Shown here in pieces: positions 36,608 to 54,271 of a stretch of 64,000 nucleotides of DNA. Position 1 is the first letter of the stretch, and every line of letters begins with the position of its first letter. Source of the DNA: Escherichia coli (GTDB lineage Bacteria; Pseudomonadota; Gammaproteobacteria; Enterobacterales; Enterobacteriaceae). The notes below the pieces were generated by a model. It ran no database searches. It worked only from the letters and a program-made list of their open reading frames with translations, and was not told where the DNA came from. The stretch lies in the NCBI RefSeq assembly GCF_002854065.1, contig NZ_CP024147.1, one strand, 5' to 3'. The position numbers and the translations under genes were made by a program.

Positions 36608-37336
36608 TTAATCACTGAATACCAACGAATCTAATACACCTTGTCCACTATGAACTCCTCCTTCAACTGACTCTGCTGATTTGCTACGGATCAAATACCC
36701 AGCAAAACTGTGATCAGCGCTAGATGCATTGTTACCTATCTGGACGGAGAACATTCCTAGTTCGCTGACCAGATCAGTAACCTGATATAACTCCCCTTTA
36801 CGGACAACCAGAGAAGGTGTAGCTCGCGGGACAGGATGTATCCGACGCATGAACGACCAGGATTGATATTGCAGCGGGTCAAGTCTTGCCAGTTTTAACT
36901 GGATATCAGAGCCAAACAGACAATGCCCACCCCCTTCGCCCTGGTTTTTGAGAACCCATGAATCAGAAGGAGACTCTTTTACAATGCTGATTGTATCAGG
37001 GCTAACAGGAAGCATTTCGCCCAACACCATTTTTATGATATCAACCTCTTCCGGCTTCAGTCCAAAAGCAATCAGTTCATCGCACCCCAAATGAGAGAGC
37101 AACATTTGTACTCGCTTACTTGTCGCAAGTTGCTGAGCGACTGTTGCATTCACCGCAACTCGGTGCTGCTCAATCAATACTCGCGTGGCCATTAGCGTCT
37201 GGCAACACTCCTTCTCATTGAGACTGGCGGCTTCATAATCTGAGTATTGATATCCGGCACGTAAGTAAACAGAAGTAGTATGGGTGTATGAACTTGTCAT
37301 TGTTTTGACATTTATCAAATATATTCGATTATGCAT
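36608..37336 (-). CDS. hypothetical cysteine-containing protein, divergent from arsR
   Basis: 242-aa ORF (alternative start at 37300); no motif recognised. Confidence 0.4.
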   Translation of the reverse strand: MHNRIYLINVKTMTSSYTHTTSVYLRAGYQYSDYEAASLNEKECCQTLMATRVLIEQHRVAVNATVAQQLATSKRVQMLLSHLGCDELIAFGLKPEEVDIIKMVLGEMLPVSPDTISIVKESPSDSWVLKNQGEGGGHCLFGSDIQLKLARLDPLQYQSWSFMRRIHPVPRATPSLVVRKGELYQVTDLVSELGMFSVQIGNNASSADHSFAGYLIRSKSAESVEGGVHSGQGVLDSLVFSD

Positions 37337-37393: not shown

Positions 37394-37747
37394 ATGATGT
37401 CGCTTACTTCCCTACAACTCTTTAAGAATCTGTCTGATGAAACACGTCTGGGTATTGTTCTCATACTCAGAACTATGGGGGAGTTGTGCGTATGTGATCT
37501 TTGCACTGCACTTGATCAATCACAGCCTAAGATCTCCCGGCATCTGGCTATGTTGCGAGAAAGTGGGATTTTGCTTGATAGTAAACACGGTAAATGGGTT
37601 CATTACCGGTTATCCCCACACATTCCTTCATGGGCTGCACAGATTATTGAGCAGGCCTGGTTAAGCCAACAGGACGATCTTCAGGCCATCGCCCGTAAAC
37701 TGGCTTCAGTCAACTGCACTAACAGCAGTAAGGCTATTTGTATTTAA
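37394..37747 (+). CDS. arsR: arsenite-responsive repressor ArsR
   Basis: HTH plus As(III)-binding ELCVCDLC motif. Confidence 0.9.
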   Translation: MMSLTSLQLFKNLSDETRLGIVLILRTMGELCVCDLCTALDQSQPKISRHLAMLRESGILLDSKHGKWVHYRLSPHIPSWAAQIIEQAWLSQQDDLQAIARKLASVNCTNSSKAICI

Positions 37748-37787
37748 AAATTTGCCTGAATATATATGATTTCCCACATATGAGGTA

Positions 37788-38156
37788 TTGAGAATGAAAA
37801 CGCTAGCGGTATTCGACCCGGCAATGTGTTGTAGCACCGGTGTCTGCGGTACTGATGTCGATCAGGCTCTGGTTGATTTTTCCGCGGATGTGCAATGGCT
37901 GAAACAACGAGGTGTTCAGGTAGATCGTTTCAATCTGGCACAGCAACCGATGAGCTTTGTCCAGAACGAGAAAGTTAAAGCATTTATTGAGGCTTCTGGT
38001 GCGGAAGGGCTGCCATTACTGTTACTGGATGGCGAAACAGTGATGGCCGGGCGTTATCCGAAACGGGCTGAACTTGCACGGTGGTTTGGAATTCCGCTGG
38101 AGAAAGTAGGATTAGCGCCTTCAGGCTGCTGCGGTGGTAATACTTCTTGTTGTTAA
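37788..38156 (+). CDS. arsD: arsenic metallochaperone/regulator ArsD
   Basis: N-terminal MCCSTGVCG (Cys12/13/18) and C-terminal CCGGNTSCC. Confidence 0.9.
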   Translation: MRMKTLAVFDPAMCCSTGVCGTDVDQALVDFSADVQWLKQRGVQVDRFNLAQQPMSFVQNEKVKAFIEASGAEGLPLLLLDGETVMAGRYPKRAELARWFGIPLEKVGLAPSGCCGGNTSCC

Positions 38157-38173
38157 GTATGTCAGGAGGACAT

Positions 38174-39925
38174 ATGAAATTCTTACAGAACATCCCCCCT
38201 TATCTGTTTTTTACTGGTAAAGGAGGCGTTGGTAAAACCTCTATTTCCTGCGCCACGGCGATCCGTCTGGCAGAACAGGGTAAACGAGTGCTGCTGGTCA
38301 GTACCGATCCGGCCTCAAACGTAGGCCAGGTCTTTGGCCAGGTTATTGGCAATACTATTCAGCCAATAGCCACTGTTCCTGGATTGTCGGCACTTGAGAT
38401 TGATCCTCAGGCCGCTGCGCAACAGTACCGGGCCAGAATCGTTGACCCTATTAAAGGTGTCCTGCCTGATGACGTCGTTAGCAGCATCAACGAACAACTG
38501 TCTGGTGCATGCACAACAGAGATTGCGGCTTTTGATGAGTTTACCGGATTACTGACAGACGCCTCTTTGCTGACCCAGTTTGACCATATCATCTTTGATA
38601 CCGCGCCAACCGGCCATACTATTCGCCTTCTCCAGTTGCCAGGCGCCTGGAGCAGCTTTATTGACAGCAATCCCGAGGGCGCATCCTGCCTCGGCCCGAT
38701 GGCGGGGCTGGAAAAACAGCGTGAACAGTATGCCCATGCCGTTGAAGCACTGTCCGACCCAGCGCGTACCCGCCTGGTTTTAGTTGCCAGACTGCAAAAA
38801 TCCACCCTGCAAGAAGTCGCCCGAACTCATTTAGAACTCGCCGCAATTGGCCTTAAAAATCAGTACTTGGTCATTAATGGCGTTCTGCCCAAAACTGAAG
38901 CGGCAAACGATACACTGGCTGCGGCTATATGGGACCGTGAACAGGAGGCGCTGGCCAATCTTCCTTCTGACCTTTCCGGTCTGCCAACTGACACGTTATT
39001 CCTCCAACCACTCAATATGGTCGGCGTGGCTGCATTAAGTGGGCTTCTCTCCTCTCAGCCTGAGGCAGCATCATCTTCTGAAGAATACATTCAGCAACGA
39101 CCTGAAATTCCGTCGCTCTCAGCGTTAGTCGATGATATTGCCCGTAACGAACATGGTCTGATAATGCTAATGGGCAAAGGCGGTGTGGGGAAAACCACGA
39201 TGGCGGCAGCCATTGCCGTCAGACTGGCCGAAATGGGATTTGATGTCCATCTGACCACCTCAGATCCAGCAGCACACCTCAGCACAACCCTGAACGGTAG
39301 CCTTAACAATCTGCAGGTCAGTAGAATCGATCCTCACGAGGAAACAGAACGCTATCGTCAGCATGTTCTTGATACCAAGGGTGGAGAACTGGATGAAGCG
39401 GGTAAACGCCTGCTGGAAGAAGATTTACGCTCTCCTTGTACCGAAGAGATTGCGGTCTTCCAGGCCTTTTCACGGGTGATTCGTGAAGCGGGTAAGCGCT
39501 TCGTGGTCATGGATACGGCACCCACCGGGCATACCCTACTGCTGCTGGATGCCACCGGGGCGTATCACCGCGAAATTGCTAAGAAAATGGGCGATAAAGG
39601 CCATTTCACCACGCCAATGATGCAGCTTCAGGACCCGGAGCGAACCAAAGTGTTACTGGTCACGCTGCCGGAAACCACGCCCGTGCTTGAGGCGGCAAAT
39701 TTGCAGGCCGACCTTGAACGCGCAGGGATTCATCCCTGGGGCTGGATTATCAATAACAGCCTTTCCATTGCGGATACCCGTTCGCCGCTGCTTCGTCTGC
39801 GGGCGCAACAGGAACTTCCGCAGATCGAGAGTGTTAAACTCCAGCATGCCAGTCGCGTAGCTCTTGTTCCTGTACTGGCGTCAGAACCGACCGGCATCGA
39901 CAAACTCAAACAACTCGCTGGTTAA
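38174..39925 (+). CDS. arsA: arsenite pump ATPase ArsA
   Basis: Start [23 protein letters not shown]; duplicated P-loops (GKGGVGKTS / GKGGVGKTT) and DTAPTGH motifs. Confidence 0.9.
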
Positions 39926-39972
39926 TTATTGTCATTACTCGGGGCAGCTTTGCTGCCCTTTCGGGAGGTTAT

Positions 39973-41262
39973 ATGTTACTGGCAGGAGCCATTTTTATCC
40001 TGACCATCGTGTTGGTTATCTGGCAGCCAAAGGGATTAGGCATTGGCTGGAGCGCCACGCTGGGTGCCGTACTGGCTCTGGCATCGGGTGTGATTCATAT
40101 CGCCGATATTCCGGTGGTGTGGAATATCGTCTGGAACGCCACGGCCACCTTTATTGCCGTCATTATCATCAGTCTGTTGCTGGATGAGTCCGGCTTTTTT
40201 GAATGGGCTGCACTGCACGTTTCCCGCTGGGGCAATGGGCGTGGACGTCTGCTATTTACCTATATTGTTCTGCTCGGCGCGGCGGTGGCGGCATTGTTTG
40301 CCAACGATGGCGCGGCGTTAATTCTGACGCCGATCGTTATCGCCATGCTACTGGCGCTGGGATTCAGTAAAAGCACCACGCTGGCTTTCGTGATGGCCGC
40401 AGGGTTTATTGCCGATACCGCCAGCTTGCCACTTATCGTATCGAACCTGGTCAATATCGTTTCGGCTGATTTCTTCAAACTGGGATTCACGGAGTATGCG
40501 TCAGTTATGGTGCCGGTGGATATTGCCGCCATTGTCGCCACGCTGGTGATGCTGCATCTTTTTTTCCGCAAAGATATCCCGCCCACTTATGAGCTGGCGC
40601 GACTGAAAGAACCCGCAAAAGCCATCAAAGATCCTGCGACGTTCAGAACCGGCTGGGTTGTGCTCCTCCTTCTGCTGGTCGGTTTTTTTGTCCTTGAGCC
40701 GATGGGGATCCCTGTGAGTGCGATTGCGGCAGTGGGGGCGGCAATCCTGTTTGCGGTGGCCAAAAAAGGTCATGGTATTAACACCGGTAAAGTGCTGCGC
40801 GGCGCGCCCTGGCAGATCGTGATCTTCTCACTGGGGATGTATCTGGTGGTATACGGGTTGCGTAACGCCGGTCTGACGGATTATCTCTCTGACGTGCTGA
40901 ACGTACTGGCAGATAAAGGACTGTGGGCCGCGACGCTGGGGACAGGATTCCTGACTGCATTCCTCTCTTCTATCATGAACAATATGCCGACCGTACTGGT
41001 TGGCGCACTGTCGATTGATGGCAGCACCGCGACCGGCGTTATCAAAGAAGCGATGATTTATGCCAACGTCATTGGCTGCGATCTGGGGCCGAAAATCACC
41101 CCTATTGGTAGCCTGGCGACACTGCTCTGGCTGCACGTGCTTTCACAGAAGAATATGACAATCTCGTGGGGATACTACTTCCGCACCGGGATTATCATGA
41201 CCCTGCCTGTGCTGTTTGTAACGCTGGCTGCGCTGGCGCTACGTCTCTCTGTCACTTTGTAA
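39973..41262 (+). CDS. arsB: arsenite efflux permease ArsB
   Basis: 429-aa polytopic membrane protein between arsA and arsC. Confidence 0.9.
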
Positions 41263-41274
41263 TGAGATTCTGAT

Positions 41275-41700
41275 ATGAGCAACATCACTATTTATCACAA
41301 CCCAGCCTGCGGCACCTCGCGTAATACGCTGGAGATGATCCGCAACAGCGGTACCGAGCCGACCATTATTCTTTACCTTGAGAACCCACCTTCGAGGGAT
41401 GAATTGGTCAAACTCATTGCCGATATGGGTATTTCAGTACGAGCGCTGCTGCGTAAAAACGTTGAGCCTTACGAGCAACTGGGTCTTGCAGAAGATAAAT
41501 TTACTGACGATCAGCTCATCGACTTTATGTTGCAACACCCAATTCTGATTAACCGTCCGATCGTGGTTACGCCGCTGGGAACCAGACTGTGCCGTCCTTC
41601 TGAAGTGGTTCTGGATATCCTGCAGGATGCGCAGAAAGGGGCTTTCGCTAAGGAAGACGGTGAAAAGGTCGTTGATGAAGCAGGAAAACGGCTGAAATAA
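41275..41700 (+). CDS. arsC: arsenate reductase ArsC (glutaredoxin-coupled type)
   Basis: 141 aa, catalytic HNPACGTSRN motif. Confidence 0.9.
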   Translation: MSNITIYHNPACGTSRNTLEMIRNSGTEPTIILYLENPPSRDELVKLIADMGISVRALLRKNVEPYEQLGLAEDKFTDDQLIDFMLQHPILINRPIVVTPLGTRLCRPSEVVLDILQDAQKGAFAKEDGEKVVDEAGKRLK

Positions 41701-41734: not shown

Positions 41735-42271
41735 TCAGAGCATCATGCCTGAATCCGATGGTAACGTGCTGTTCCCTTCGCCCAGATTTCGTTGCAGCAA
41801 CACTGTGTCAAGCCAACGACCATGCTTGAAGCCAATATTTTTCAGCGTACCAATCTCAGTAAATCCAACCTGCTGATGGACTTTCAGCGAACCTTGATTA
41901 TTGCTATCGCCGACAATAGCAATCATCTGCCGATAGCCGTGAGTTTCTGCCCAGGCAATGACGTAGCGCAGCAACGCTTTTCCTGTCCCCTGACGCTGTG
42001 CGTCCGGGTGAATATAAATCGAATCTTCGAGAGTGTGGCGGTAGGCGTAGCGTTCACGGTAACGAGTGAGATAACAATACCCGATAACCTTTTCTTCCTC
42101 TAACGCGACAACCCACGGTAGCGCCTGATTGCGGATCTTTTTCAGGCGGGTAAGCATCTCGTGGGTATCCGGAGGTTCAGTTTCAAAGCTGGCGGTACCG
42201 TGAAGAACATGATGGGCGTAGATATCGCGTATAGCGGGGATGTGCTTTTCTTCTGCGTTAACGATTTTCAT
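41735..42271 (-). CDS. GNAT family N-acetyltransferase (phosphinothricin acetyltransferase-like; possible ArsN-type)
   Basis: 178 aa; acetyl-CoA binding region QRQGTGKALL; located between two ars operons. Confidence 0.65.
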   Translation of the reverse strand: MKIVNAEEKHIPAIRDIYAHHVLHGTASFETEPPDTHEMLTRLKKIRNQALPWVVALEEEKVIGYCYLTRYRERYAYRHTLEDSIYIHPDAQRQGTGKALLRYVIAWAETHGYRQMIAIVGDSNNQGSLKVHQQVGFTEIGTLKNIGFKHGRWLDTVLLQRNLGEGNSTLPSDSGMML

Positions 42272-42483: not shown

Positions 42484-43308
42484 ATGTCCTCAGAATCAAA
42501 ACGGAACGGAAAAGGTTTTTTATCAGGCACGTTAATCGGTGCTTTAGGCGGCTTAATTGGCCTCGGTGGCGCTGAGTTCCGCCTTCCCGTCCTGATGGGT
42601 AGTTTCAAAATGCCGACGCTTGAAGCGGTTATTTTTAACAAAGCGATGAGCCTTACTGTTGTCGCTGTTGCTTTGATATTCCGCACAAAATCCATCGCCG
42701 TCGACCAGCTGTTTGCTCATCTTGATATTGTCATCAATTTGCTGGCCGGGAGCCTTATAGGTGCATGGTGGGCAGCAGGAAGAGCCATAAAAATGTCCCG
42801 TATTTGGCTGGACAGAACCATTCTGCTCCTGCTTGTTATCCTGTCATTCGTCATGTTTTCAGAAGCATTGATGCCTCTGCATGATAGCTCCGCTGGATTA
42901 TTCCAGCCCGGAATCGCGACCATTATTGCGGGTGTTATTGCGGGTGTTATTGCGGGTTTCTTCATCGGGAATGTTGCTGCTTTGCTGGGTGTTGCAGGGG
43001 GAGAGCTCCTGATACCAACTATCGTTATCCTTTTTGGGGCTGACATTAAACTGGCTGGCAGTTTGTCACTCATGATCAGTTTACCGACGATGATTGTGGG
43101 GTTCTCTCGCTACACTAATGCAGATGCTTTCCAGATCCTGAGAAAAGAGAAAAAACTTTTTGTGTGGATGGTCATCGGTTCCGTTATAGGTGCCGCTATT
43201 GGGGGCCTTATGCTCGGTATGTTCCCGGTAAGAGTACTTATGACTCTGTTAGGCGCGGTACTTCTTATTTCCGCGATCAAAACCTTTAAGCATACCCGGC
43301 AAAGATAA
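42484..43308 (+). CDS. TauE/SafE (TSUP) family membrane transporter
   Basis: 274-aa, 4+4 TM repeat architecture with GxxGG motifs (GALGGLIGLGGAEF, AALLGVAGGELL). Confidence 0.7.
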   Translation: MSSESKRNGKGFLSGTLIGALGGLIGLGGAEFRLPVLMGSFKMPTLEAVIFNKAMSLTVVAVALIFRTKSIAVDQLFAHLDIVINLLAGSLIGAWWAAGRAIKMSRIWLDRTILLLLVILSFVMFSEALMPLHDSSAGLFQPGIATIIAGVIAGVIAGFFIGNVAALLGVAGGELLIPTIVILFGADIKLAGSLSLMISLPTMIVGFSRYTNADAFQILRKEKKLFVWMVIGSVIGAAIGGLMLGMFPVRVLMTLLGAVLLISAIKTFKHTRQR

Positions 43309-43370
43309 TAGCCGTTTACGCTTTGGACTATTCCGCATTACAGAGAAAATGATTTCGAAAAGGTATCAGA

Positions 43371-43739
43371 ATGAAAAAGAATCCCCTTAAATCAAACTTA
43401 ATCTTAGTCAGACCGAGGATCTATATTAACGACAACATCTCGCTGGGGCCGGGGAAGGTTGACCTTTTAAGGGCGATTGATGGCTTTCACTCTCTTTCTG
43501 CGGCAGCTAAAGATTTGGGGATACCTTATAAAAAAGCATGGCTCTTAATTGACACTTTGAATAAAGGGATTGGTCAGCCAGTTGTAACCACTTCCACTGG
43601 TGGTAACAAGGGCGGTGGTACAGTTCTGACGCCATTGGGGCGTAGCCTGCTGATCTGGTATGACCAGGCCGAGGCCCACCTCAATGAGCAATCTCAGCAA
43701 CAGTTAATCGAACTTGAAAAGATTCTTTTTGGAAAATGA
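43371..43739 (+). CDS. ModE N-terminal-domain-like winged-helix regulator
   Basis: LGPGKVDLLRAIDGFHSLSAAAKDLGIPYKKAW...GGNKGGGTVLTPLG matches the ModE-type HTH pattern. Confidence 0.6.
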   Translation: MKKNPLKSNLILVRPRIYINDNISLGPGKVDLLRAIDGFHSLSAAAKDLGIPYKKAWLLIDTLNKGIGQPVVTTSTGGNKGGGTVLTPLGRSLLIWYDQAEAHLNEQSQQQLIELEKILFGK

Positions 43740-43812: not shown

Positions 43813-45570
43813 TTACTTCGCCATTTCTTCCAGCAGGTCAATACCAACCGGCTCTTCGCTCTGTAGCGCTGTTAATGCAATACGCTTTGCATACTGCTCT
43901 TCCACATCAGAGATGAGAGGCAGCTCGCGGTTAGCTCTGGTCTTCAGGAAAGGTGAAGACGGCTCAGCAGCTGCCAGGCTGTTATTCACAACCCATGCCC
44001 ACGGCTCAATGCCAGCCCGACGCAGATCCTGCTGCAGGTTAGCGGCTTCCAGTACAGGTGTCGTTTCGGCAAGCGTCACGATAATCACCTTCGTCTTCTC
44101 CGGGTCCTGCAATTGCATCATTGGCGTCATCACATGGTCATGTGTTTGCCCCATCTGGCGCACCATTTCCCGGTGATAGGCTCCAGTCGCATCCAGTAGC
44201 AGAAGTGTGTGACCCGTTGGCGCGGTGTCCATAATGACAAAATGATCGTCTGCCTCTTTGATTATCCGCGAGAATGCCTGGAAGACGGCGATCTCTTCAG
44301 TACATGGTGAGCGGAGATCTTCTTCCAGCACCGCCAGCCCCTCAGCGTCTAATCCTTTGCCCTGATTCTCCAGTACAAAACGGCGATAACGCTCTGTCTC
44401 CACCTTCGGATCGATACGGCTGACCTGCAGATTTGGCAGCGAGCCATCCAGCGTGTAAGACAGATGTGCTGCCGGATCGGACGTGGTCAGATGGACTTTA
44501 TGACCGCGTTTTGCCAGCGATACCGCGACCGATGCTGCAACAGTCGTTTTGCCCACGCCGCCTTTCCCCATCGTCATTACCAGCCCTTTGCCTGTCAGAC
44601 TGAGTTCATCCACTAACGAGGAAAGTTTCGGTAAATCCAGAGCATTTAGCGTTGTATTGGAGAGAGACAGTGGCGCTTTGCTCTCTGTTAATAACTCTCG
44701 CAGGGCTTCCAGACCGACCAGATTAAATGGCTTCAGAGACAGCTGCGAGCGGGGAAGATTAACCAGATTATCAGGCATTGCCTGTAATGCTTTTTCTTCC
44801 CGAGCCAGAATACTTTGCGCCAGTGGATCATTTTCACCGGCAAACGGTGGCAGCACACCATTAATGGCAAGGTGTTGATGCTGCAAACCAATAGCAGAAA
44901 GCTCATCGTGCGTATGAGAAACCTCTTTCAGCGTTGAAGCCTGAGCTCGGGCAACCAGCACTAAGCGTGTGAGAGCTGCGTCGGACAGCGCTTTAACCGC
45001 ATCGGAGTACTGGTGCTGTTGTTTCTCAAGCCCTACCAGAGGTCCAAGGTTTGCAGCGGCATCAGGGTTCGCTTCGAGATAACCGCTCCAGGCTCCCGGC
45101 AATTCAAGCATGCGGATGGTGTGACCGGTTGGCGCGGTATCAAATACGATATGGTCATATTTTCCCCGCAGCTCATGATTGGTCAGCAGACCAGTAAACT
45201 CATCAAACGCAGCGATTTCCGTGGTGCATGAGCCGGAAAGCTGCTCTTCAATGCTGCTGACCACATCGGCTGGCATCAGCCCGCGAACAGGGTCGAGCAC
45301 ACGGTCACGATAGGCTTGCGCTGCAGCCATCGGATCAACTTCCATCGCGGCAAGATTTTCTACAGTACTGATATCTGTGATTCGGTGGCCGATAGTCTGG
45401 CTAAATACCTGGCCGACATTGGAAGCCGGATCGGTACTCACCAGAAGCGTTCTCTTACCCTGATCGGCCAGCCATACTGCAGTAGCACAGGCCAGGGATG
45501 TCTTACCCACTCCACCTTTACCAGTGAAGAAGATGAACGGGGGAATGTCTTTTAAAAATGGCATATTCAT
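43813..45570 (-). CDS. arsA: second arsenite pump ATPase ArsA paralogue
   Basis: Start [25 protein letters not shown]; duplicated P-loops and DTAPTGH motifs; diverged from the copy at 38174. Confidence 0.85.
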   Translation of the reverse strand: MNMPFLKDIPPFIFFTGKGGVGKTSLACATAVWLADQGKRTLLVSTDPASNVGQVFSQTIGHRITDISTVENLAAMEVDPMAAAQAYRDRVLDPVRGLMPADVVSSIEEQLSGSCTTEIAAFDEFTGLLTNHELRGKYDHIVFDTAPTGHTIRMLELPGAWSGYLEANPDAAANLGPLVGLEKQQHQYSDAVKALSDAALTRLVLVARAQASTLKEVSHTHDELSAIGLQHQHLAINGVLPPFAGENDPLAQSILAREEKALQAMPDNLVNLPRSQLSLKPFNLVGLEALRELLTESKAPLSLSNTTLNALDLPKLSSLVDELSLTGKGLVMTMGKGGVGKTTVAASVAVSLAKRGHKVHLTTSDPAAHLSYTLDGSLPNLQVSRIDPKVETERYRRFVLENQGKGLDAEGLAVLEEDLRSPCTEEIAVFQAFSRIIKEADDHFVIMDTAPTGHTLLLLDATGAYHREMVRQMGQTHDHVMTPMMQLQDPEKTKVIIVTLAETTPVLEAANLQQDLRRAGIEPWAWVVNNSLAAAEPSSPFLKTRANRELPLISDVEEQYAKRIALTALQSEEPVGIDLLEEMAK

Positions 45571-45590
45571 CAGTGATAGCTCCTCTGGAA

Positions 45591-45953
45591 TTAAGGCATA
45601 CGTGGAATGCTGCAGCAACGCGGTTGCGTACTGTCTTCACTCCAGTCCTGAGTTAGCGGAATATCTGCCCAACGGGCGATATCTTCACGAGTCGGCAGTT
45701 TGCCTGCCATCACCAGCTTGCCGTCGAGCAAGGTGACAGGGAGGGATTCCATCCCTGATGTGTTCATAAACTCTTTGATTACAGGGGTATTCAGGAACTG
45801 CTGCGGGTTTTTCGCAAGGCTGTAGCGCTGAATATCAACGCCATTCTTTTTCGCCCATTCGGCGCTGGCATTCCATTTGACGGCTTCGTCGCTCACCACA
45901 ACGCTGCTGGTTGCGCAGCAGCCTGCTGCTTCAAAGATCTCAATTTTTGACAT
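45591..45953 (-). CDS. arsD: divergent ArsD-like metallochaperone
   Basis: 120 aa; vicinal Cys pair (AAGCCATS) at the ArsD Cys12/13 position but lacks Cys18; C-terminal CC. Confidence 0.7.
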   Translation of the reverse strand: MSKIEIFEAAGCCATSSVVVSDEAVKWNASAEWAKKNGVDIQRYSLAKNPQQFLNTPVIKEFMNTSGMESLPVTLLDGKLVMAGKLPTREDIARWADIPLTQDWSEDSTQPRCCSIPRMP

Positions 45954-46028
45954 GGATTGTTTACCTCAGTGTTTAGTCATTTGGCTTTACACTGAGGTAA
46001 ACGAAGGTGGTGGGAAAAAGATGCGCGA

Positions 46029-46586
46029 TTAATTCATTTTTTTGTGGCAGCAGACAAAAGATGTGTCATCCGCCTCAATCTGGCAGAGTTCTGTCATCGT
46101 CTCTTTCAGGTGTTTTCTGGCCCGAAGTAGTCGGGATTTAAACGCTGTAAGCGTGATTCCCCATTCATCGGCCAGGGACTGCTGGGGACGCCGGTTAAGG
46201 TCGGACTCTTCAATCAACCACCGCTCATCTTCGGGTAAAGCCTGTAATGTTTCAGGCAGGCAAATATCCAGTGTTGAGATTGCATCAAGGGATGCGTCTG
46301 TTAATAGGGCATCTTCTTCCAGCTCAACAAACGCCCTGGTGGTTCGGTACTCATCAATCAGCAGATTCCTTGCTACCCGATACAACCAGGCTCGCGGATT
46401 TTCCATCTCACAAAAAATGTCTGAATGGGCTCGGGCACGCAGGAAAAGGTCTTGCAGAAGGTCTGCTGCTTTTTCGCTATCGCCTGTCTTCGATATCAGA
46501 AAGCGAGAAAATTCGCCTTCATGCTGCCGCCAGAACACGCTCATACAGCTGTTGAATGCTGTTATGTCACTCATACTAACCTTCAA
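46029..46586 (-). CDS. sigma-70 family (ECF-like) RNA polymerase sigma factor with Cys-rich C-terminal tail
   Basis: Region 2-like [13 protein letters not shown]...[15 protein letters not shown] and region 4-like HTH; C-terminus [16 protein letters not shown]. Confidence 0.6.
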
Positions 46587-47293
46587 ATTTTGCTCTGATT
46601 AACCCGTCGGGAAAGTTCTTCTGCAGACTCTTTTCGTTCACTGTAGCGATCGACAAGATAGGCAGAATTTGCCCGGGTCAACAATGTAAACTTCATCAAT
46701 TCTTCCATCACATCCACGATGCGGTCGTAATATGGTGACGGTTTCATACGTCCATCGTCATCAAACTCCTGCCAGGCTTTTGCTACCGAGGACTGGTTCG
46801 GAATAGTGATCATTCTCATCCAACGACCAAGCACGCGCATCTGGTTGACTGTGTTGAATGACTGGGAACCTCCACACACTTGCATAACAGCCAGAGTTTT
46901 TCCCTGAGAAGGACGAACAGCACCTTCAGATAATGGTATCCAGTCAATTTGTGCCTTCATAATACCAGTCATCGCTCCGTGTCGTTCCGGAGAGCACCAC
47001 ACCATTCCTTCAGACCAGCGGACCAGTTCACGCAACTCCATAACTTTTGGATGTGACTCCGGTGCATCATCAGGAAGTGGAAGGCCAGATGGATTAAAAA
47101 TGCGGACTTCTGCGCCCATCGCAGTTAACAACCGACCAGCTTCCTCTGTCGCCAGTCGACTGTATGAGCGCTCACGAACTGAGCCATAAAGCATTAGTAT
47201 ACGAGGGGGGTGAGATATTGTCGGTATCCCCATTTTTTGCTCAGTTATTGCAGCATCAAATAAATCAGGAACTATATTATTTAGCTTATTCAT
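46583..47293 (-). CDS. arsH: ArsH, NADPH-dependent FMN reductase family
   Basis: 236 aa with [12 protein letters not shown] flavodoxin-like motif. Confidence 0.85.
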
Positions 47294-47391
47294 TTTTTAT
47301 TTTCCCTATAGATTCGGGATCTTAGTAGGATGGATTCAGACGGTTCGATGCAGCTTTCGTCAATCATGACAGTTATGAGTTTTTCGGTTAC

Positions 47392-47715
47392 TTATCCATT
47401 TTTGCCAGCGGGTTCCGTAACATCTGTTTTACTGTTTACACAGCACTCTTCACGTAAGAATTCGATGATAGCTTCCAGTATTTCGTATTGAGAGACGCAC
47501 ATGAGCGTTCGACTCTCCCGGTTTTGTGTGACGAGTCCTACTGATACTAAGGCTGAAATATGATGACTTAACGTTGATGAGGGAATGCCAAGCTGCTTTT
47601 GCAATTCACCTACAGGCAAACCTTGTTCTCCAGCTTTTACAAGATGTTTGAATATGAACAAACGGGTCGGGTGACCCAGCTCTTTTAGTGCTTTAGCTAC
47701 TTCTTCCAATTGCAT
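47392..47715 (-). CDS. arsR: ArsR/SmtB-family repressor (second ars regulator) with C-terminal vicinal cysteines
   Basis: 107 aa, HTH LPVGELQKQLGIPSSTLSHHISAL, C-terminal EECCVN. Confidence 0.75.
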   Translation of the reverse strand: MQLEEVAKALKELGHPTRLFIFKHLVKAGEQGLPVGELQKQLGIPSSTLSHHISALVSVGLVTQNRESRTLMCVSQYEILEAIIEFLREECCVNSKTDVTEPAGKNG

Positions 47716-47820
47716 GTGACAACCCTCTGTCTAATGATATTTCGATAATACCAGAAATATCTTGACCAGAATTATATTTCGATTATTCTAGAAATGTAGA
47801 TTTTGTCAAGAGGGTTTAGT

Positions 47821-48954
47821 ATGAATAGTTGGATTTCTATGCTGCAAGATGCCGCAGAGATGTTTTTGTTTTTGGCCGTCGAGCTATCTTTGCTGTTTAT
47901 TGTCATCAGTGCCGGTGTGAGCCTGATAAGGCAAAAGGTCCCGGACCATAAAATCCAGCAATTGTTGGGGGCGAAAAAAGGAAAAGGCTACCTGCTGGCC
48001 TCGTTGTTGGGAGCCGTTACCCCTTTCTGTAGTTGCTCAACAATTCCAATGCTACGAGGGTTGTTGTCGGCGAAAGCAGGGTTTGGTCCGACACTCACTT
48101 TTTTGTTTGTTTCACCGTTGCTTAATCCCATTATCGTGGGGTTAATGTGGGTTACCTTTGGCTGGAAAGTAACTTTGTTGTACGCGATCATCGCTGCCGG
48201 TGTCTCAGTCCTTGCCAGTATCGTATTGGATTTACTAGGATTTGAACGTCATATTGTTGATCACAAAAACTCAGCATCAAGTGGTTGCGCCACCAAATGT
48301 GATGATTCCGAAGCTTCGGTAAAAACGTCGGCGGGTTCCAGTTGTTGCAGCACTAGCTCGACTCAATTGCCTGTAAAAACGAGTTGCTGTACTTCATCAG
48401 CGAACCCCATAATTAACTTAAGGACGGTAAAGAACGAGCAGAACGTATCAACGTGTTGTTCATCAATATCATCTGAACAACCAGCTGTTAGCTGTTGCAG
48501 CAGCGAGAATCTGGGCAATGTGAATCTCACACCGAATACCACCTCTGGCCCAATAAAGTTAGCTATGAAAGATGCCTTACAGCAGTTTAAGGATGTTCTG
48601 CCTTATCTTTTGTTAGGTGTATTAATAGGTTCATTTATTTATGGCTTTATCCCTTCAGAGTGGATTGCAGCTCATGCCGGAGCAGATAATCCCTTAGCCA
48701 TACCGCTGAGTGCAGTTGTTGGTATTCCGTTGTATATACGCGCAGAGGCAGTGATACCACTTGCATCAGTGCTGATGACTAAAGGAATGGGCCTGGGGGC
48801 ATTAATGGCCTTGATAATCGGTAGTGCTGGAGCGAGTTTGACAGAAGTAATACTGCTTAAATCAATGTTCAGAATGCCTATGATAGTCGCTTTTCTGACA
48901 GTTATCTTAGGTATGGCAATTCTAATGGGTTATCTGACTCAATTCTTGTTTTAA
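47821..48954 (+). CDS. arsP: ArsP-type permease with extended Cys/Ser-rich loop
   Basis: TPFCSCS motif in TM region; ATG at 47821 after GAGGG; large S/T/C loop with four CC doublets. Confidence 0.75.
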   Translation: MNSWISMLQDAAEMFLFLAVELSLLFIVISAGVSLIRQKVPDHKIQQLLGAKKGKGYLLASLLGAVTPFCSCSTIPMLRGLLSAKAGFGPTLTFLFVSPLLNPIIVGLMWVTFGWKVTLLYAIIAAGVSVLASIVLDLLGFERHIVDHKNSASSGCATKCDDSEASVKTSAGSSCCSTSSTQLPVKTSCCTSSANPIINLRTVKNEQNVSTCCSSISSEQPAVSCCSSENLGNVNLTPNTTSGPIKLAMKDALQQFKDVLPYLLLGVLIGSFIYGFIPSEWIAAHAGADNPLAIPLSAVVGIPLYIRAEAVIPLASVLMTKGMGLGALMALIIGSAGASLTEVILLKSMFRMPMIVAFLTVILGMAILMGYLTQFLF

Positions 48955-49412: not shown

Positions 49413-50756
49413 ATGATCTTCTTTAGAGTTGAGCTAAAAGGAGTCGAGGCGATGGCCAGGATAATCCAATCAGCCGGTATCAATCATGGTGCAACAGCAA
49501 AAATAATTTCCGATTCAATAGATTATAACTCCGGCATACATATTGCAGGATTACCAACGCTATATAATAAAGATGGTCATTTTGTAGAAATTGTAAATTT
49601 GTGGTTTTTGGATTTGATAACCGTTAAGAGGCTAGAGGATATTAGTTCTTCAGCCAGAGCAATTCTTCGTTACTGGTCTTTTCTAGAACGAGAAGAGCTT
49701 ACATGGAGTCATTTTCCTCCAGTGAAACGCCTGAAACCCACATACCTTTTCCGTAGCAACGACTTGTTAAAAGCAGTTAAAGAGGGAAGACTGGCGTACT
49801 CAACTGCAAATACTTATATGGGACATTTAGTTCAGTTTTACATCTGGGCAATTGAAAATCATCATCTTGTCATATCAAGTGAAAAAGAAGCTCCCTTTAC
49901 TATTGAGTTTGTTAAGCGTAACAATAGAGGCCTGCTGGCACATCTTCGCCCAATGATCAGTGTGCAAACGAGCGATTTACGTATCCGCGTTCCTAAAGTT
50001 ACAAACGCCGAGATCCAGTCATTAACTCCTTTAACTCAAGATCATCTTTCCTTACTATCATTCAACTTAAGCCATCAATCTGTTGAATTTATGTTGATGA
50101 CTTTACTGGCCTGTAAAAGTGGTTTGAGACTTCGTGAAGCATGTAGCCTCACAATTGAGGCTTTATCTCAAGCTTTGCCCGCCAACGAATTAAAGCTACG
50201 CTATATGATCAACATTTGGCCCCACAATGGTGTTGATACAAAATTTAGAAAAAAAAGAAATATTGAAGTCCCCTGGCCTCTACTAAACGCATTACAACGC
50301 TACTCGCTGTCAGAAAGAAGGCAAAAAAGACTTTCAAAATTACAGACAAAAATAGCCATTCCCTCAATTTCGGAAAAGATTAAAGAATCCCACAATAAAG
50401 CATCTCGATTCGAACCTCTTTTTATCAGTCAGCAAGGAAATTGTATCCAGCCCGAAGTTCTAAATGCAAGGTGGGTTGCATTTAGAAATGAACTTGCCAA
50501 AAAAGAACCTAGTTTTCGTTATCGTTTCCACGACCTCCGATGTACCTATGCCACATACAGACTTCAAGACCTGCTGGATAGCAATCTCTCAGAAGGGGAT
50601 GCCCTAGACTGTCTTATGGGATGGATGGGACACAATAACGAAAGAACCACATTTAAATATATCCGCTACTTGAAGAAAAACGAGATGCTCAAGTGTGCTT
50701 TTTCGCTATTAGACTCAGTGATGGATAATGCAATAAGGGATAATTTAAATGACTGA
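49413..50756 (+). CDS. tyrosine site-specific recombinase (first of trio)
   Basis: R...HxxR...H...Y signature: LRLREACSL, FHDLRCTYATY, GHNNERTTFKYIRY. Confidence 0.8.
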   Translation: MIFFRVELKGVEAMARIIQSAGINHGATAKIISDSIDYNSGIHIAGLPTLYNKDGHFVEIVNLWFLDLITVKRLEDISSSARAILRYWSFLEREELTWSHFPPVKRLKPTYLFRSNDLLKAVKEGRLAYSTANTYMGHLVQFYIWAIENHHLVISSEKEAPFTIEFVKRNNRGLLAHLRPMISVQTSDLRIRVPKVTNAEIQSLTPLTQDHLSLLSFNLSHQSVEFMLMTLLACKSGLRLREACSLTIEALSQALPANELKLRYMINIWPHNGVDTKFRKKRNIEVPWPLLNALQRYSLSERRQKRLSKLQTKIAIPSISEKIKESHNKASRFEPLFISQQGNCIQPEVLNARWVAFRNELAKKEPSFRYRFHDLRCTYATYRLQDLLDSNLSEGDALDCLMGWMGHNNERTTFKYIRYLKKNEMLKCAFSLLDSVMDNAIRDNLND

Positions 50757-52472
50757 TAAAATCCCTCAATCCAGACTCGGCCATGAAATACTACTGGAGG
50801 TTACAGATGGTGGAAATCGTTCTAAAACACTAGATTTCAATCGCTACAACTATTTATACTTCCCCACTCGAAATAAAATAAATAGAGGTCACAGTACATT
50901 TCAAGATAGATCAGTCAGCGCTGAATCGTTATATGTAGCATTCAGAGATTCAGACTACTCATCAGCCACAAAATATTATCTTTTTGAATACCTCAGGCAA
51001 TATATTGTATTTTGCGACAAGTGTCACCATCCCATTTTCACTAATGAATCCGTGCAGGCCTACTGTGATCTCCTTATTTATAAAAATAAATCAGGAATTA
51101 TTTTGAATAGTACTTATACTGCTATCATTAGTGCCACAAAACGCTTATTCGTTATGCTTGACTTACCTGGGCGGTGGTTTGATGAATTACCAACCTTAGG
51201 AAAGTCACAGGCACAGCCCTATAAGGCCTATAGTGACAATGATTTAAAAAAACTACTCCCTTTACTGAGGATATTTTTCAAGCAAATTTCCAATAAGTTC
51301 CTACAAGACCCCGCTTTGTATCTTTCTCAAGGTAAGAATGAAACTGATATGTTTTTCAGGTGGAATGGTAAAATATATGCAGTATATGGTAGTGTCGGGC
51401 AACTAATGGCTTCTGCTGTATATCTACTGTCTTACTATACATGGGCAAACACAAATACATTACTTTCTCTTGAAAGACCAGACATATGTGAAAGTAATGT
51501 AAATGGAGAATGGTACCAAATGCCAGCATTTAAGCGCCGGGCATTTAGAGTCATCACTATTCAGATCGGTGCCCACGACCAGATCAACATTCCAAAGTAT
51601 TCAATGGAATTTTTCAACCAACTTCTAAAAGTCTCAAAAGCTATTTCAGTTGAAAGTAACTTACTTTTTCAGTCCGGTTCATGTAATCGCATCACCCCAT
51701 TATCAGCGGTCCACTTACAAAATTTCAACAGTTTTCTCAAAAAGAACTTTAGATTAACTGATGATAAAGGACTTAGCTATCACCTGTAATATCGAGATTT
51801 CGTGCTACTGGTAGTCAATTTACGCAATTGCATTACTCTCATACACATAGTGCATCGCTATTAGGAAATTCACCGAAAACAACTCGCAAGCATTATTCAG
51901 AAGGGAATGAATACCAAAATCAGTCAATGCTCCAGGACTCTGTCTCTGTTTTTGCAGACAAGGCGGTAAATGGCGGGAATATAGAGACGTCTAAAAAAAG
52001 AATAAAAAGTGAACTTAATGTTGAGATTTTAACATATGAAAGTATGCTTAAAATGAAATCTCCACCAATGCGACAGGCCCACGGCAGTTACTGTAAAGAT
52101 CCATTCGGGGAGCAGGCTAAAAAGTTCTTGCTACGCGCCCAACGTCACGATTTGCTTTCTACAGAAAAATTTGCTTGCTCAGATCTACTGATGTGTTTTT
52201 CCTGTCCTCATCAAGTTGTGATAGCTGAACCTACTGATATTTGGTGTTTGCTGAGTTTTAAAGAATGCATAGAAGAGAGTATTTACAAGCATGTCAATCA
52301 CACTCATTTCCATAATAACTATGACTCTGTGTTGTCGGCAATTGAAAAAATTTTAATGAGTATTGATAAAAAAATACTTTCAAGTGCAACTCAAAAATTT
52401 CTCGATGAGGGTCCTCACCCTTTATGGAGAGACCAGTCATTTCTATATCCATATAGCAATAAGGATACATGA
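50749..52472 (+). pseudogene. tyrosine recombinase (second of trio) interrupted by a frameshift within the catalytic region
   Basis: ORF 50749-51789 ends ...DDKGLSYHL-stop; the overlapping frame continues ...LSPVISRFRATGSQFTQLHYSHTHSASLLGNSPKTTRKHY, carrying the box II and Tyr motifs; frames overlap only in 51777-51789. Confidence 0.6.
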
Positions 52473-54271
52473 TGAAAAAAGATACATTAAAAATTTATTT
52501 ACCCGATAGTGTAAATGAGAATCAGTGTCCTGAGGCTTGTGATGTAATATTTCTTCATAGAAGGCAATGCTGGGGGGAGTTAAATGACATTCCTATTTGC
52601 ATTGATAATAAGGGGAATGTAGTCGCCAGGTTTGGCGATATCATATGGAATTTGGAGCCTCTGGTCGTAACTAAAAATGCAACACATAGGCAAATTAATT
52701 TCTCAGTACTAAAGTCCCATCCATCTCTCTTATATGAGATGAAACTCATTTGCTACGGTTGGCTGTTCACAAAGAACATGCAATACAGTTTACCGACTAA
52801 AATATCAACAATCATCGGAAGAGCATCGGGTCTGAAGATGAGTTATAAATATCTGATGTCAAATTCCCTGGATAGTATTTCTCGTATATGCGAACCTGAA
52901 ATATGGGGGAAATATCTGAACTTTCTTGAAGAACAAAAAAAGAGCGCAGGGACTTTAGTTCATATACTGTGTTCCCTTCAGCAAGCCTATCTACTATTTC
53001 CATGGATGGGACTTGATTACCGAGAAATTAAATTCAGCCCTACGAATTTAAGTAAAAAAATATGTCGAGATGAAGCAATTGAGAGAGCACAAACCCTGGC
53101 TATACCGGAAGATATCGCAGATAAATTATTACACTTTGCAGTAAACCTCGTAGATACCGCATGGCAATACAGGGAGCAACTGGGTGAAACAGAACGACGC
53201 ATTCAGGAAAACTATAAGTTAGGAGAACAGGCGGTTCAAAACAAAATAATATCGGGCCAATGGAAGTGGCTAACGACTGAAGAAGGTACCCCTGCTTTTA
53301 GACACCATTTTGCCAAAGAAGCGGCCCGCTTCTTCCCCTTTAACCCAGCTGAAATCATATCTGAACTTCTCACTGACTACCCTGATCGCCCGACAGATGC
53401 TAATGGTTCCTGGTGGCATTTACAGCGAGGCAATCTTACATCAGCCTGTTTTGTTTGCTGTGCTGCATTCTCAGGTATGCGGGAAAGTGAACTTTATGAG
53501 CTAACATCTGAGAGTTATTACAATGCTGTTTACAGCGGCAGAACCTTTCATTTTCTAAAAGGCAAGACTCATAAAATGGGGGAAAGGCATACTGAGTGGG
53601 TTGTTGCCCCTATCGTTCAAAAAGCAGTCGAAGTTATGAGTGCCTTAACGAAACACTTAAGAGAGTATTTGCTACAAGATGCTTCAACTGCACGGGATAA
53701 AGAACTCGCGCAATGCCTTTGGCTTTCCCAGGGGCAGCGCTCAACTCAACCCAAAAGAATATCATGCTGGGCCCTACGCCTCACAAATTTCTCCAAATAC
53801 TCTGGTGCAATCGTTTCTGAAAAAGATTACGCAGAATGCCTTCGTTCCAACCCGAATAGTCAGGAAAAGATTAAAAATCATGTTCACATTGGAAAACACT
53901 GGGCGCTTTCCCCTCATCAGTTCAGAAGGACTCTTGCCTTTTTTACAATAAAAAATAGATTGGGAAATGCGATAGCCATCAAACAGCAATTCAAGCACCT
54001 CTATCTCCAGATGTCTGAGTGGTATTGCGAAGGTGGTATCCCTTCGCGCCTGGATGAAGTCGAGGCCGACAAAGAATTGCAGAAAATGATAGATACAGTA
54101 AGCAATGAGCAAATTACCCAAAAATACTGGTCATGGTTTCATGGTACCGAAACACTTTCAGGGAGTCATGGCAAAGATATTCTGAAGCTCAGGGATGATT
54201 TGCCAATCATGTTTAGAAGTTGGGAGAAATTATACAAATTGGTGAAAGATAAAAGGATCACGCTACACTGA
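52469..54271 (+). CDS. tyrosine site-specific recombinase (third of trio)
   Basis: 600 aa; FSGMRESELYEL, SPHQFRRTLAFF (HxxR), C-terminal KHLYLQMSEWY; 4-nt overlap with preceding gene. Confidence 0.75.
   Translation: MMKKDTLKIYLPDSVNENQCPEACDVIFLHRRQCWGELNDIPICIDNKGNVVARFGDIIWNLEPLVVTKNATHRQINFSVLKSHPSLLYEMKLICYGWLFTKNMQYSLPTKISTIIGRASGLKMSYKYLMSNSLDSISRICEPEIWGKYLNFLEEQKKSAGTLVHILCSLQQAYLLFPWMGLDYREIKFSPTNLSKKICRDEAIERAQTLAIPEDIADKLLHFAVNLVDTAWQYREQLGETERRIQENYKLGEQAVQNKIISGQWKWLTTEEGTPAFRHHFAKEAARFFPFNPAEIISELLTDYPDRPTDANGSWWHLQRGNLTSACFVCCAAFSGMRESELYELTSESYYNAVYSGRTFHFLKGKTHKMGERHTEWVVAPIVQKAVEVMSALTKHLREYLLQDASTARDKELAQCLWLSQGQRSTQPKRISCWALRLTNFSKYSGAIVSEKDYAECLRSNPNSQEKIKNHVHIGKHWALSPHQFRRTLAFFTIKNRLGNAIAIKQQFKHLYLQMSEWYCEGGIPSRLDEVEADKELQKMIDTVSNEQITQKYWSWFHGTETLSGSHGKDILKLRDDLPIMFRSWEKLYKLVKDKRITLH

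Follow-up and report, generated by a model that had tools for sequence, protein, structure and literature searches.

A central loop with four vicinal cysteine pairs in the ArsP permease of an Escherichia coli arsenic-resistance island: a candidate binding element for trivalent organoarsenicals

We analyzed a 64,000-nucleotide stretch of Escherichia coli DNA (contig NZ_CP024147.1 of RefSeq assembly GCF_002854065.1; "the window" below), and concentrated on its arsP gene, whose product carries a long hydrophilic loop studded with adjacent cysteine (CC) doublets. Translation of nucleotides 47821-48951 (+ strand) yields a protein of 377 residues, and RefSeq uses the same ATG and stop codon with the annotation "permease". 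A first-pass annotation, made from the letters of the DNA, had described the product as an ArsP-family permease. This assignment was borne out by the Pfam family ArsP_1, which matched with an E value of 8.6e-55 (186.4 bits, cut-off 32.3), and by 37% identity, over the full length and in both halves, to ArsP of Campylobacter jejuni (CjArsP). Since profile positions 4-294 of 294 correspond to residues 10-375, i.e., to essentially the whole protein, the central loop represents an insertion relative to the profile. The best NCBIfam matches were the SO_0444 Cu/Zn efflux model NF033936 (123 bits, cut-off 300) and the SaoE efflux model NF040736 (91.7 bits, cut-off 325); both scores are far under the cut-off, so that the protein belongs to neither family and its homology to SO_0444 is distant only. 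CjArsP itself scored 83.5 bits with NF033936. A sequence search of the PDB with the window ArsP detected no solved structure and, to our knowledge, none exists for any ArsP. The gene is already known, being the arsP of the "ars2" cluster of the IncI1 plasmid R64, and the long-loop type of ArsP was noted in 2010. The positions of the gene, its motifs and its neighbors are collected in Table 1.

The motif TPFCSCS, also picked out in the first-pass annotation, occupies residues 67-73, and its Cys70 and Cys72 align with Cys65 and Cys67 of CjArsP. It hardly varies: T67, P68, F69, C70 and S73 were each at least 90% conserved among 112 aligned homologs. In an AlphaFold2 model it sits in the break between helices 55-66 and 71-83. 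A tPF-C-(S/T)-C-S motif with a cysteine pair has been described for the ArsP family (PMC4435449).

Between the two halves of the permease lies the loop (residues 141-255), in which 23 Ser, 11 Thr and 10 Cys are found among 115 residues (20%, 10% and 8.7%, respectively). All four CC motifs listed by the first-pass annotation (SSCCSTSS, TSCCTSS, STCCSS and VSCCSS) were found exactly; it had also located the loop correctly, at 48240-48540, but the loop extends slightly further at its 3' end (Table 1). When the residues of the loop were shuffled 100,000 times, the mean number of CC doublets was 0.78 and the probability of obtaining at least four was 0.003, i.e., the clustering exceeds chance. A search of the DNA under the loop for tandem repeats, as a slippage mechanism, found none, and the sole recurring string was a short 13-nucleotide S-C-C-S codon string, AGTTGTTGCAGCA. 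Between positions 36000 and 56000, the window differs from RefSeq record NZ_CP182139.1 (the chromosome of CUWW06, a Thai wastewater isolate) by six substitutions and a single 1-bp indel; the latter is at 47299, between arsH and arsR2, and one of the substitutions falls in the ArsP loop, where Ser170 of the window is Leu in the record.

Table 1. Features of arsP, its product and the surrounding arsenic-resistance modules
Feature	Coordinates	Strand	Basis or value
arsP, R64 "ars2"-type allele, 377-residue ArsP_1 (PF03773) permease	47821-48954	+	open reading frame translation, Pfam, RefSeq
TPFCSCS motif, residues 67-73, with Cys70 and Cys72, the family's conserved membrane Cys pair	48019-48039	+	112-homolog alignment, CjArsP, AlphaFold
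Central hydrophilic Ser/Thr/Cys-rich loop, residues 141-255, joining the two homologous halves	48241-48585	+	hydropathy, AlphaFold, hhalign
CxxxC (Cys156, Cys160; SGCATKCDD), loop start	48286-48300	+	Cys156 kept in 90/95 close homologs
CC doublet 1, Cys175/176 (SSCCSTSS)	48343-48348	+	only in the longest alleles, 18/95
CC doublet 2, Cys189/190 (TSCCTSS)	48385-48390	+	Cys189 kept in 87/95, Cys190 in 71/95
CC doublet 3, Cys212/213 (STCCSS)	48454-48459	+	Cys212 kept in 74/95, Cys213 in 37/95
CC doublet 4, Cys225/226 (VSCCSS), best-conserved pair	48493-48498	+	Cys225 kept in 93/95, Cys226 in 90/95
ArsP N-terminus			net charge -0.9, average of 99 homologs
ArsP loop 1			net charge +3.0, average of 99 homologs
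ArsP central loop, C-terminal end			net charge +2.7, average of 99 homologs
ArsP loop 5			net charge -1.2, average of 99 homologs
ArsP loop 7			net charge +2.6, average of 99 homologs
Two copies of a 26-nucleotide element, dyad GATATTTC-N10-GAAATATC, arsR2-arsP intergenic region	47733-47795		repeat search
arsR2, ArsR/SmtB repressor with Cys73, vicinal Cys91-Cys92 and no later Cys, SpArsR-like	47392-47715	-	family matches
arsH	46583-47293	-	ars2 operon; family matches and annotation
SigZ-like extracytoplasmic function (ECF) sigma factor	46029-46574	-	ars2 operon, between arsH and arsD2
arsD2	45591-45953	-	ars2 operon
arsA2	43813-45570	-	ars2 operon
Module 1, canonical arsR-arsD-arsA-arsB-arsC	37397-41700	+	
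Module 2, arsA2, arsD2, ECF sigma factor, arsH, arsR2	43813-47715	-	arsP divergent, on +

According to the first-pass annotation, the proposed role could not stand if the loop were predicted to be embedded in the membrane. It is not embedded: in a 19-residue window its hydropathy does not rise above about 0.15, far under membrane values, and in the AlphaFold2 model (built on the 112-sequence alignment) residues 162-164 and 166-236 lack secondary structure and have predicted local distance difference test (pLDDT) values below 50. The core of the model is confident, with a mean pLDDT of 82.5 and 252 residues at or above 90. Broken helices occur in it at 66-71 (TPFCSCS), 100-103, 304-308 and 337-340, and each half is modeled as one long helix, then a broken helix pair, a further broken helix and a closing helix.

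The two halves, residues 30-138 and 267-375, are homologous (hhalign probability 97.6%, E = 4e-12), and in the alignment between them TPFCSCS falls opposite IPLYIRAE, and loop 1 opposite loop 5. Two homologous four-segment halves with a hydrophilic loop between them are the architecture given for the ArsP family in a passage of PMC7176098. Loops 1 and 5 are homologous but have net charges of opposite sign (Table 1), and should therefore lie on opposite sides of the membrane, making the halves inverted repeats. For this, each half must cross the membrane an odd number of times, with one broken helix pair in each half forming a re-entrant hairpin, from which we infer that the central loop faces the cytoplasm. 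A periplasmic loop, arising from 4+4 full crossings with the N-terminus outside, was considered and set aside as the less likely topology because of the opposite charges of loops 1 and 5, and because the C-terminal end of the central loop is K/R-rich family-wide.

Conservation of the loop was assessed in two sets of sequences, i.e., 95 close homologs with distinct loops, and a diverse set of 99 family representatives made up of the query and, mostly, representatives of 50%-identity clusters. Within the close set the membrane core was 85-99% identical to the query, and the segment aligned to query residues 146-246 varied from 53 to 101 residues. At positions other than cysteine, the loops of Aeromonas and Citrobacter homologs retained only 9-22% identity, while four to eight of the ten loop cysteines were still aligned; taken alone, the Aeromonas proteins had a core 85-88% identical to that of the query, the same 9-22% identity at non-cysteine loop positions, and five to eight of the ten cysteines aligned.

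In the 99 representatives, whose loops range from 31 to 140 residues, we counted 77 CC doublets, compared with 14.5 ± 3.5 expected after shuffling each loop, a five-fold excess. At least one doublet was present in 38 of these loops, at least two in 19 and at least four in 7; the number per loop varied from 1 to 7 across family members, and S-C-C-S was the commonest context. Cysteine was denser in longer loops: it made up 1.5% of those with up to 45 residues and 6.8% of those with more than 100 (Spearman 0.75 between density and length). Some loops were built of tandem units: that of a Lentisphaeria ArsP (L017) contains three near-identical units of about 19 residues with one CC doublet each, and that of an Endozoicomonas ArsP (L010) three 10-residue units of the form SCCxSKPAPK. 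The recurrence of CC, the trend in cysteine density and the tandem CC units together point to selection for doublets and to loop growth by addition of doublet-bearing units; judged from these alignments, the loop cysteines look selected. What we add to earlier descriptions of this protein type is the disorder and low hydropathy of the loop, the conservation of its cysteines amid drift, and the family-wide recurrence of CC.

A sister subgroup from marine gammaproteobacteria (L016, L028, L030-L035, L037, L038, L040 and L050) has ArsP loops of only 41-43 residues. Their sole cysteine motif is GCxxxCG, the counterpart of Cys156/Cys160 (one member has lost one of the two), and an ArsR2-like regulator is paired with ArsP at all but one of these loci.

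The loop is an enlarged form of something that the family already had. CjArsP (P0430, 315 residues, source name "organoarsenical efflux permease ArsP [Campylobacter jejuni]"), which we retrieved via a search from a Campylobacter representative, has a central loop of about 60 residues at the same position, in which CC occurs once (KSCCANT). Another C. jejuni homolog, of 301 residues, has two loop doublets and a C. lari homolog has one. Because CjArsP has this CC-bearing loop, that of the window is an expansion of an existing feature by about 50 residues and not a new insert. The first-pass annotation had treated the loop as an insert, and the idea that the whole of it is extra had to be given up.

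The gene lies in a genomic island spanning 36.6-49 kb, which holds two arsenic-resistance modules (Table 1). In a passage of PMC6449608, the gene order of the R64 "ars2" cluster is given as arsP / arsR-arsH-sigma-arsD-arsA. The 3.5-kb stretch from arsD2 to the permease has 93.6% nucleotide identity in R64 and 97% in other plasmids. When a 4-kb query around arsP was used, more than 1,700 plasmid records matched, and in 125 of these the match covered at least 80% of the query length. arsP was present in 346 of 5,426 complete E. coli genomes, mostly on plasmids, and the conjugative plasmids that carry this allele, IncI1 among them, are found in E. coli, Salmonella, Citrobacter and Enterobacter.

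Upstream of arsP, across an intergenic region of 105 bp, lies the divergent arsR2. Promoter-like hexamers occur on both strands at 47762-47809 and are overlapped by the two copies of the 26-nucleotide element, which are probable ArsR2 operators overlapping divergent promoters. The gene thus has the setting of an ars operon under ArsR control, i.e., a divergent arsR2 and repeated dyads, with arsH, arsD and arsA downstream of arsR2. The cysteine pattern of ArsR2 recalls that of SpArsR of Shewanella putrefaciens 200, which has the vicinal pair Cys101-Cys102 only, is reported to be selective for methylarsenite (MAs(III)) and controls the arsP promoter (PMC13236881, PMC12124457). In Shewanella, Vibrio, Acinetobacter, Aeromonas and Citrobacter, too, regulators next to ArsP homologs show the pattern of ArsR2, and some ArsP-adjacent regulators have a third cysteine five residues further on. 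In Aeromonas, a two-Cys ArsR adjoins arsP and a second, three-Cys ArsR precedes arsD-arsA-acr3-arsC. Across 80 genomes, an ArsR2-like regulator was encoded within 1.5 kb of 27 of the 50 ArsP genes with loop cysteines, compared with 1 of the 30 without, although shared ancestry may lie behind part of this difference. By extrapolation, the regulator type, arsH and the intergenic dyads fit a methylarsenite-type substrate for the window ArsP.

The products of arsA2 and arsD2 depart from the usual cysteine ligands. ArsA2 has Asn at the position of Cys172 and keeps the equivalents of Cys113 and Cys422; ArsD2 keeps Cys12-Cys13 and lacks Cys18 (Ser/Val there). The same departures are seen in R64 (L001 6314-8454). 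Cys172 and Cys18 are retained in ArsA1 and ArsD1 of module 1, and in the ArsP-adjacent ArsA and ArsD of five other genomes. The two-thiol sites left in ArsA2 and ArsD2 might favor methylarsenite over arsenite. The ECF sigma factor encoded in the same operon scores 132 bits as SigZ-like, under the cut-off of 169, and has Cys-Cys at its C-terminal tail; homologs with Cys-rich C termini lie beside arsR-arsP in two Vibrio genomes (L005 8945-9544 and L012 8867-9481).

Elsewhere in the island, a GNAT acetyltransferase gene follows arsC (41735-42271, - strand). Its best match was the arsinothricin-resistance protein ArsN1 family B (145 bits, cut-off 210), together with phosphinothricin acetyltransferase, and through this gene the island may carry a further organoarsenical defense. 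The flanks of the ars modules (42484-43739 and 36608-37300) encode a TauE/SafE-type permease, a small ModE-like winged-helix protein and a 230-residue fragment. The fragment resembles the C-terminal half of a eukaryote-type glutathione synthase and carries Cys32-Cys33, and glutathione-synthase-like genes also adjoin an Aeromonas ars cluster (L083 1672-3109). After arsP, the region 49413-54271 contains a tyrosine integrase and open reading frames without family matches, several of them annotated as hypothetical, and beyond it are dinQ, a lone chromosomal arsC, IS1 and a truncated regulator (compare L002 22788-24979, just to the right of the compared region). It appears that the island took the place of the chromosomal arsR-arsB. 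No tRNA gene was found in the window as a mark of the integration site.

Taking these observations together, we propose that the window ArsP exports trivalent organoarsenicals (R-As(III)) under the control of ArsR2, and that the loop doublets bind R-As(III) and feed it to Cys70/Cys72, a proposal that we regard as having an even chance of being right. Its substrates would be methylarsenite and aromatic As(III) compounds, and arsP would be switched on through the divergently encoded repressor ArsR2. R-As(III) has exactly two free coordination positions, and each CC doublet could provide a two-thiol site at which it is reversibly bound. The flexible loop would thereby enrich the substrate near the cytoplasmic mouth of the permease, and the arsenical would then be handed by thiol exchange to Cys70-x-Cys72, which lies where the first helix pair is broken and where the substrate site is expected. 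In both the 95- and the 99-sequence sets, the loop doublets are adjacent and conserved, as would be expected of two-thiol sites. Since the pairs are kept in evolution and the remainder of the loop is free to vary, they probably bind arsenic compounds inside the cell, and the loop is most likely a cytosolic two-thiol antenna for methylarsenite-type substrates. The feature is real and non-random, and resides in a known resistance gene; the interpretation placed on it by the first-pass annotation appears reasonable from the sequence evidence, having been corrected in part.

Several points weigh against this proposal. The loop had no cysteine at all in 31 of the 99 representatives, and homologs with short, Cys-free loops (about 32-34 residues) are located within ars operons of Bacillus and Staphylococcus; because of the latter, loop cysteines must be unneeded for an ars-linked function in the family. 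Natural enterobacterial alleles exist with two or three doublets and not four (P0010, with 345 residues, has two, as does P0005). The assumed substrate specificity is carried over from a protein with 37% identity and from the regulator type, and the conserved Cys73 of ArsR2 could act as a third ligand. Finally, the literature searched, which did not extend to the primary reports on CjArsP, yielded no measurement of binding or transport by this protein or by the loop of any ArsP, and no paper in which such a loop is put to the test.

Of the alternatives, the one that survives best, although we consider it unlikely, is that the loop acts in sensing or gating, or as a metallothionein-like thiol buffer, rather than as a delivery arm. 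The conservation of the loop cysteines supports this idea as well, the variation from 1 to 7 doublets and the tandem units suit capacity over one precise site, and disordered, ligand-rich cytosolic loops regulate metal transporters of the CDF and ZIP families. However, one loop per transporter would offer only a tiny buffering capacity, and the short-loop and Cys-free relatives in ars operons work without such a gate; gating and hand-off are indistinguishable on present evidence.

We think it quite improbable that the loop instead docks ArsD2 and ArsA2, forming an ATP-driven ArsD2-ArsA2-ArsP pump in which the doublets would receive the arsenical from these partners and not from the free pool. 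Coupling of ArsA to ArsP was proposed from co-clustering and congruent trees in a passage of Castillo and Saier (PMC2963123), and in the window the divergent operon includes arsA2 and arsD2 but no arsB, with ArsA2 lacking Cys172, ArsD2 lacking Cys18 and two-thiol sites remaining, in R64 too. Against this, ArsA was encoded within 10 kb in only 1 of 29 genomes with at least one loop CC doublet, most of them having plain arsR-arsP pairs. Moreover, the Aeromonas ArsA that stands beside a CC-loop ArsP has its own Acr3 and keeps Cys172, the accompanying ArsD keeps Cys18, and arsB of module 1, about 2.6 kb from arsA2, is a possible partner in the window. We rejected ArsA coupling as a general rule on the basis of the 1 in 29 CC-loop loci and the canonical Aeromonas ArsA and ArsD, but it stays alive for the module of the window because ArsA2 and ArsD2 depart from Cys172 and Cys18. 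In a wider version, which we regard as decidedly doubtful, the whole R64-type ars2 module would be a methylarsenite-type two-thiol system, in which ArsR2, ArsD2, ArsA2 and ArsP sense, chaperone and pump R-As(III) at the expense of ATP, with the loop as acceptor; the ECF sigma factor with its Cys-Cys tail would be counted, equally doubtfully, among the parts.

There is a small chance that the loop is a tolerated low-complexity linker without a role, its cysteines being incidental. The wide range of loop lengths, the in-frame deletions in natural alleles and the Cys-free loops of nearly a third of the representatives (31 of 99) would all suit a neutral linker, but aligned cysteines persist while their neighbors drop to 9-22% identity, doublets are five-fold above the shuffled expectation family-wide, and cysteine makes up 8.7% of the loop. 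Very improbable, lastly, is the idea that the loop cysteines serve another soft metal (Hg, Cd, Cu(I) or Zn) or redox chemistry, and that the permease is not primarily an organoarsenical exporter: although PF03773 is functionally mixed, the best NCBIfam matches are SO_0444 and SaoE (both below cut-off), loops rich in His and Cys occur in P0259 and L042, and ArsR/SmtB regulators sense further metals, the SO_0444 score is far under its cut-off, arsP is divergent from an operon with arsH, arsD and arsA, the regulator is of the MAs(III)-responsive type, and the Cys-x-Cys motif is that of CjArsP. A link between loop ligands and substrate, with the relatives having His-rich loops as SO_0444 Cu/Zn exporters, was dropped because none of them reached the cut-off.

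Among known exporters, ArsP is the principal one for methylarsenite and for aromatic arsenical feed additives in their trivalent form. If R-As(III) is indeed caught by the loop doublets and delivered to the Cys-x-Cys in the membrane, the thiol relay of ArsD-ArsA and of the mercury transporters would extend to a secondary carrier, and the variation between lineages in loop length and doublet number would be explained. If the loop is dispensable, the finding would amount to no more than a curiosity, though a well-conserved one, in a resistance gene that is already known.

The closest characterized relative is CjArsP (TC 2.A.119), which is a methylarsenite/roxarsone(III) efflux permease. The two proteins share their Pfam family, the TPFCSCS motif with aligned cysteine pairs, the two-half architecture and a CC-bearing central loop in the equivalent place. 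They differ in that CjArsP has 315 residues and a loop of about 60 with a single doublet, whereas the loop of the window ArsP has about 115 residues with four doublets and the CxxxC. The genes also differ in their surroundings, since the C. jejuni operon has the order arsP-arsR-arsC-acr3, whereas that of the window is a divergent arsR-arsH-sigma-arsD-arsA.

In the relevant passages of Castillo and Saier (2010; PMC2963123), ArsP proteins fall into two types, one of about 300 residues and the other of about 400 residues with eight hydrophobic segments and a hydrophilic insertion of about 100 residues between transmembrane segments 4 and 5, and an Aeromonas/E. coli/Yersinia cluster is named. A hydrophilic loop of variable size also appears in a passage of Medrano-Soto et al. 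(2020; PMC7176098). Residues 141-255 are such an insertion between hydrophobic segments 4 and 5, and the window protein belongs to this long-loop type, as far as can be taken from these passages and from that on the R64 "ars2" arsP in PMC6449608. The passages of PMC2963123 and PMC6449608 on this protein type deal with the insertion and with gene order only and do not address on which side of the membrane the loop lies, and in none of the three sources (PMC2963123, PMC7176098 and PMC6449608) do the passages mention the loop cysteines.

As with the SpArsR-arsP pair of S. putrefaciens 200, arsR2 and arsP are divergent, and the regulator has a C-terminal vicinal cysteine pair with no third C-terminal cysteine; the window module differs in additionally having arsH, the sigma factor, arsD2 and arsA2. 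Shewanella ArsP homologs likewise have long, CC-rich loops (four doublets in L004, three in L008).

Adjacent cysteines also serve as arsenical ligands in ArsD. In ArsD (Cys12-Cys13-Cys18), where M-C-C-S-T resembles the S-C-C-S-T of the loop, and in AfArsR (Cys95-Cys96-Cys102), they bind As(III) or MAs(III) in cytosolic ars proteins. In SpArsR, adjacent cysteines form a two-coordinate MAs(III) site, and in AfArsR and CgArsR they provide two of three ligands. The ArsD and AfArsR sites are not homologous to the loop and are found in folded domains, with a third cysteine for inorganic As(III), whereas the doublets of the window lie in a disordered segment. For the proposed hand-off, MerT, MerF and MerC offer a parallel, in that their cysteine pairs pass a thiophilic substrate by ligand exchange, and CDF and ZIP transporters have variable, disordered, ligand-rich (His-rich) cytosolic loops between transporter halves. 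With both groups the likeness to the window ArsP is a mechanistic analogy only, their folds, families and substrates being unrelated to it.

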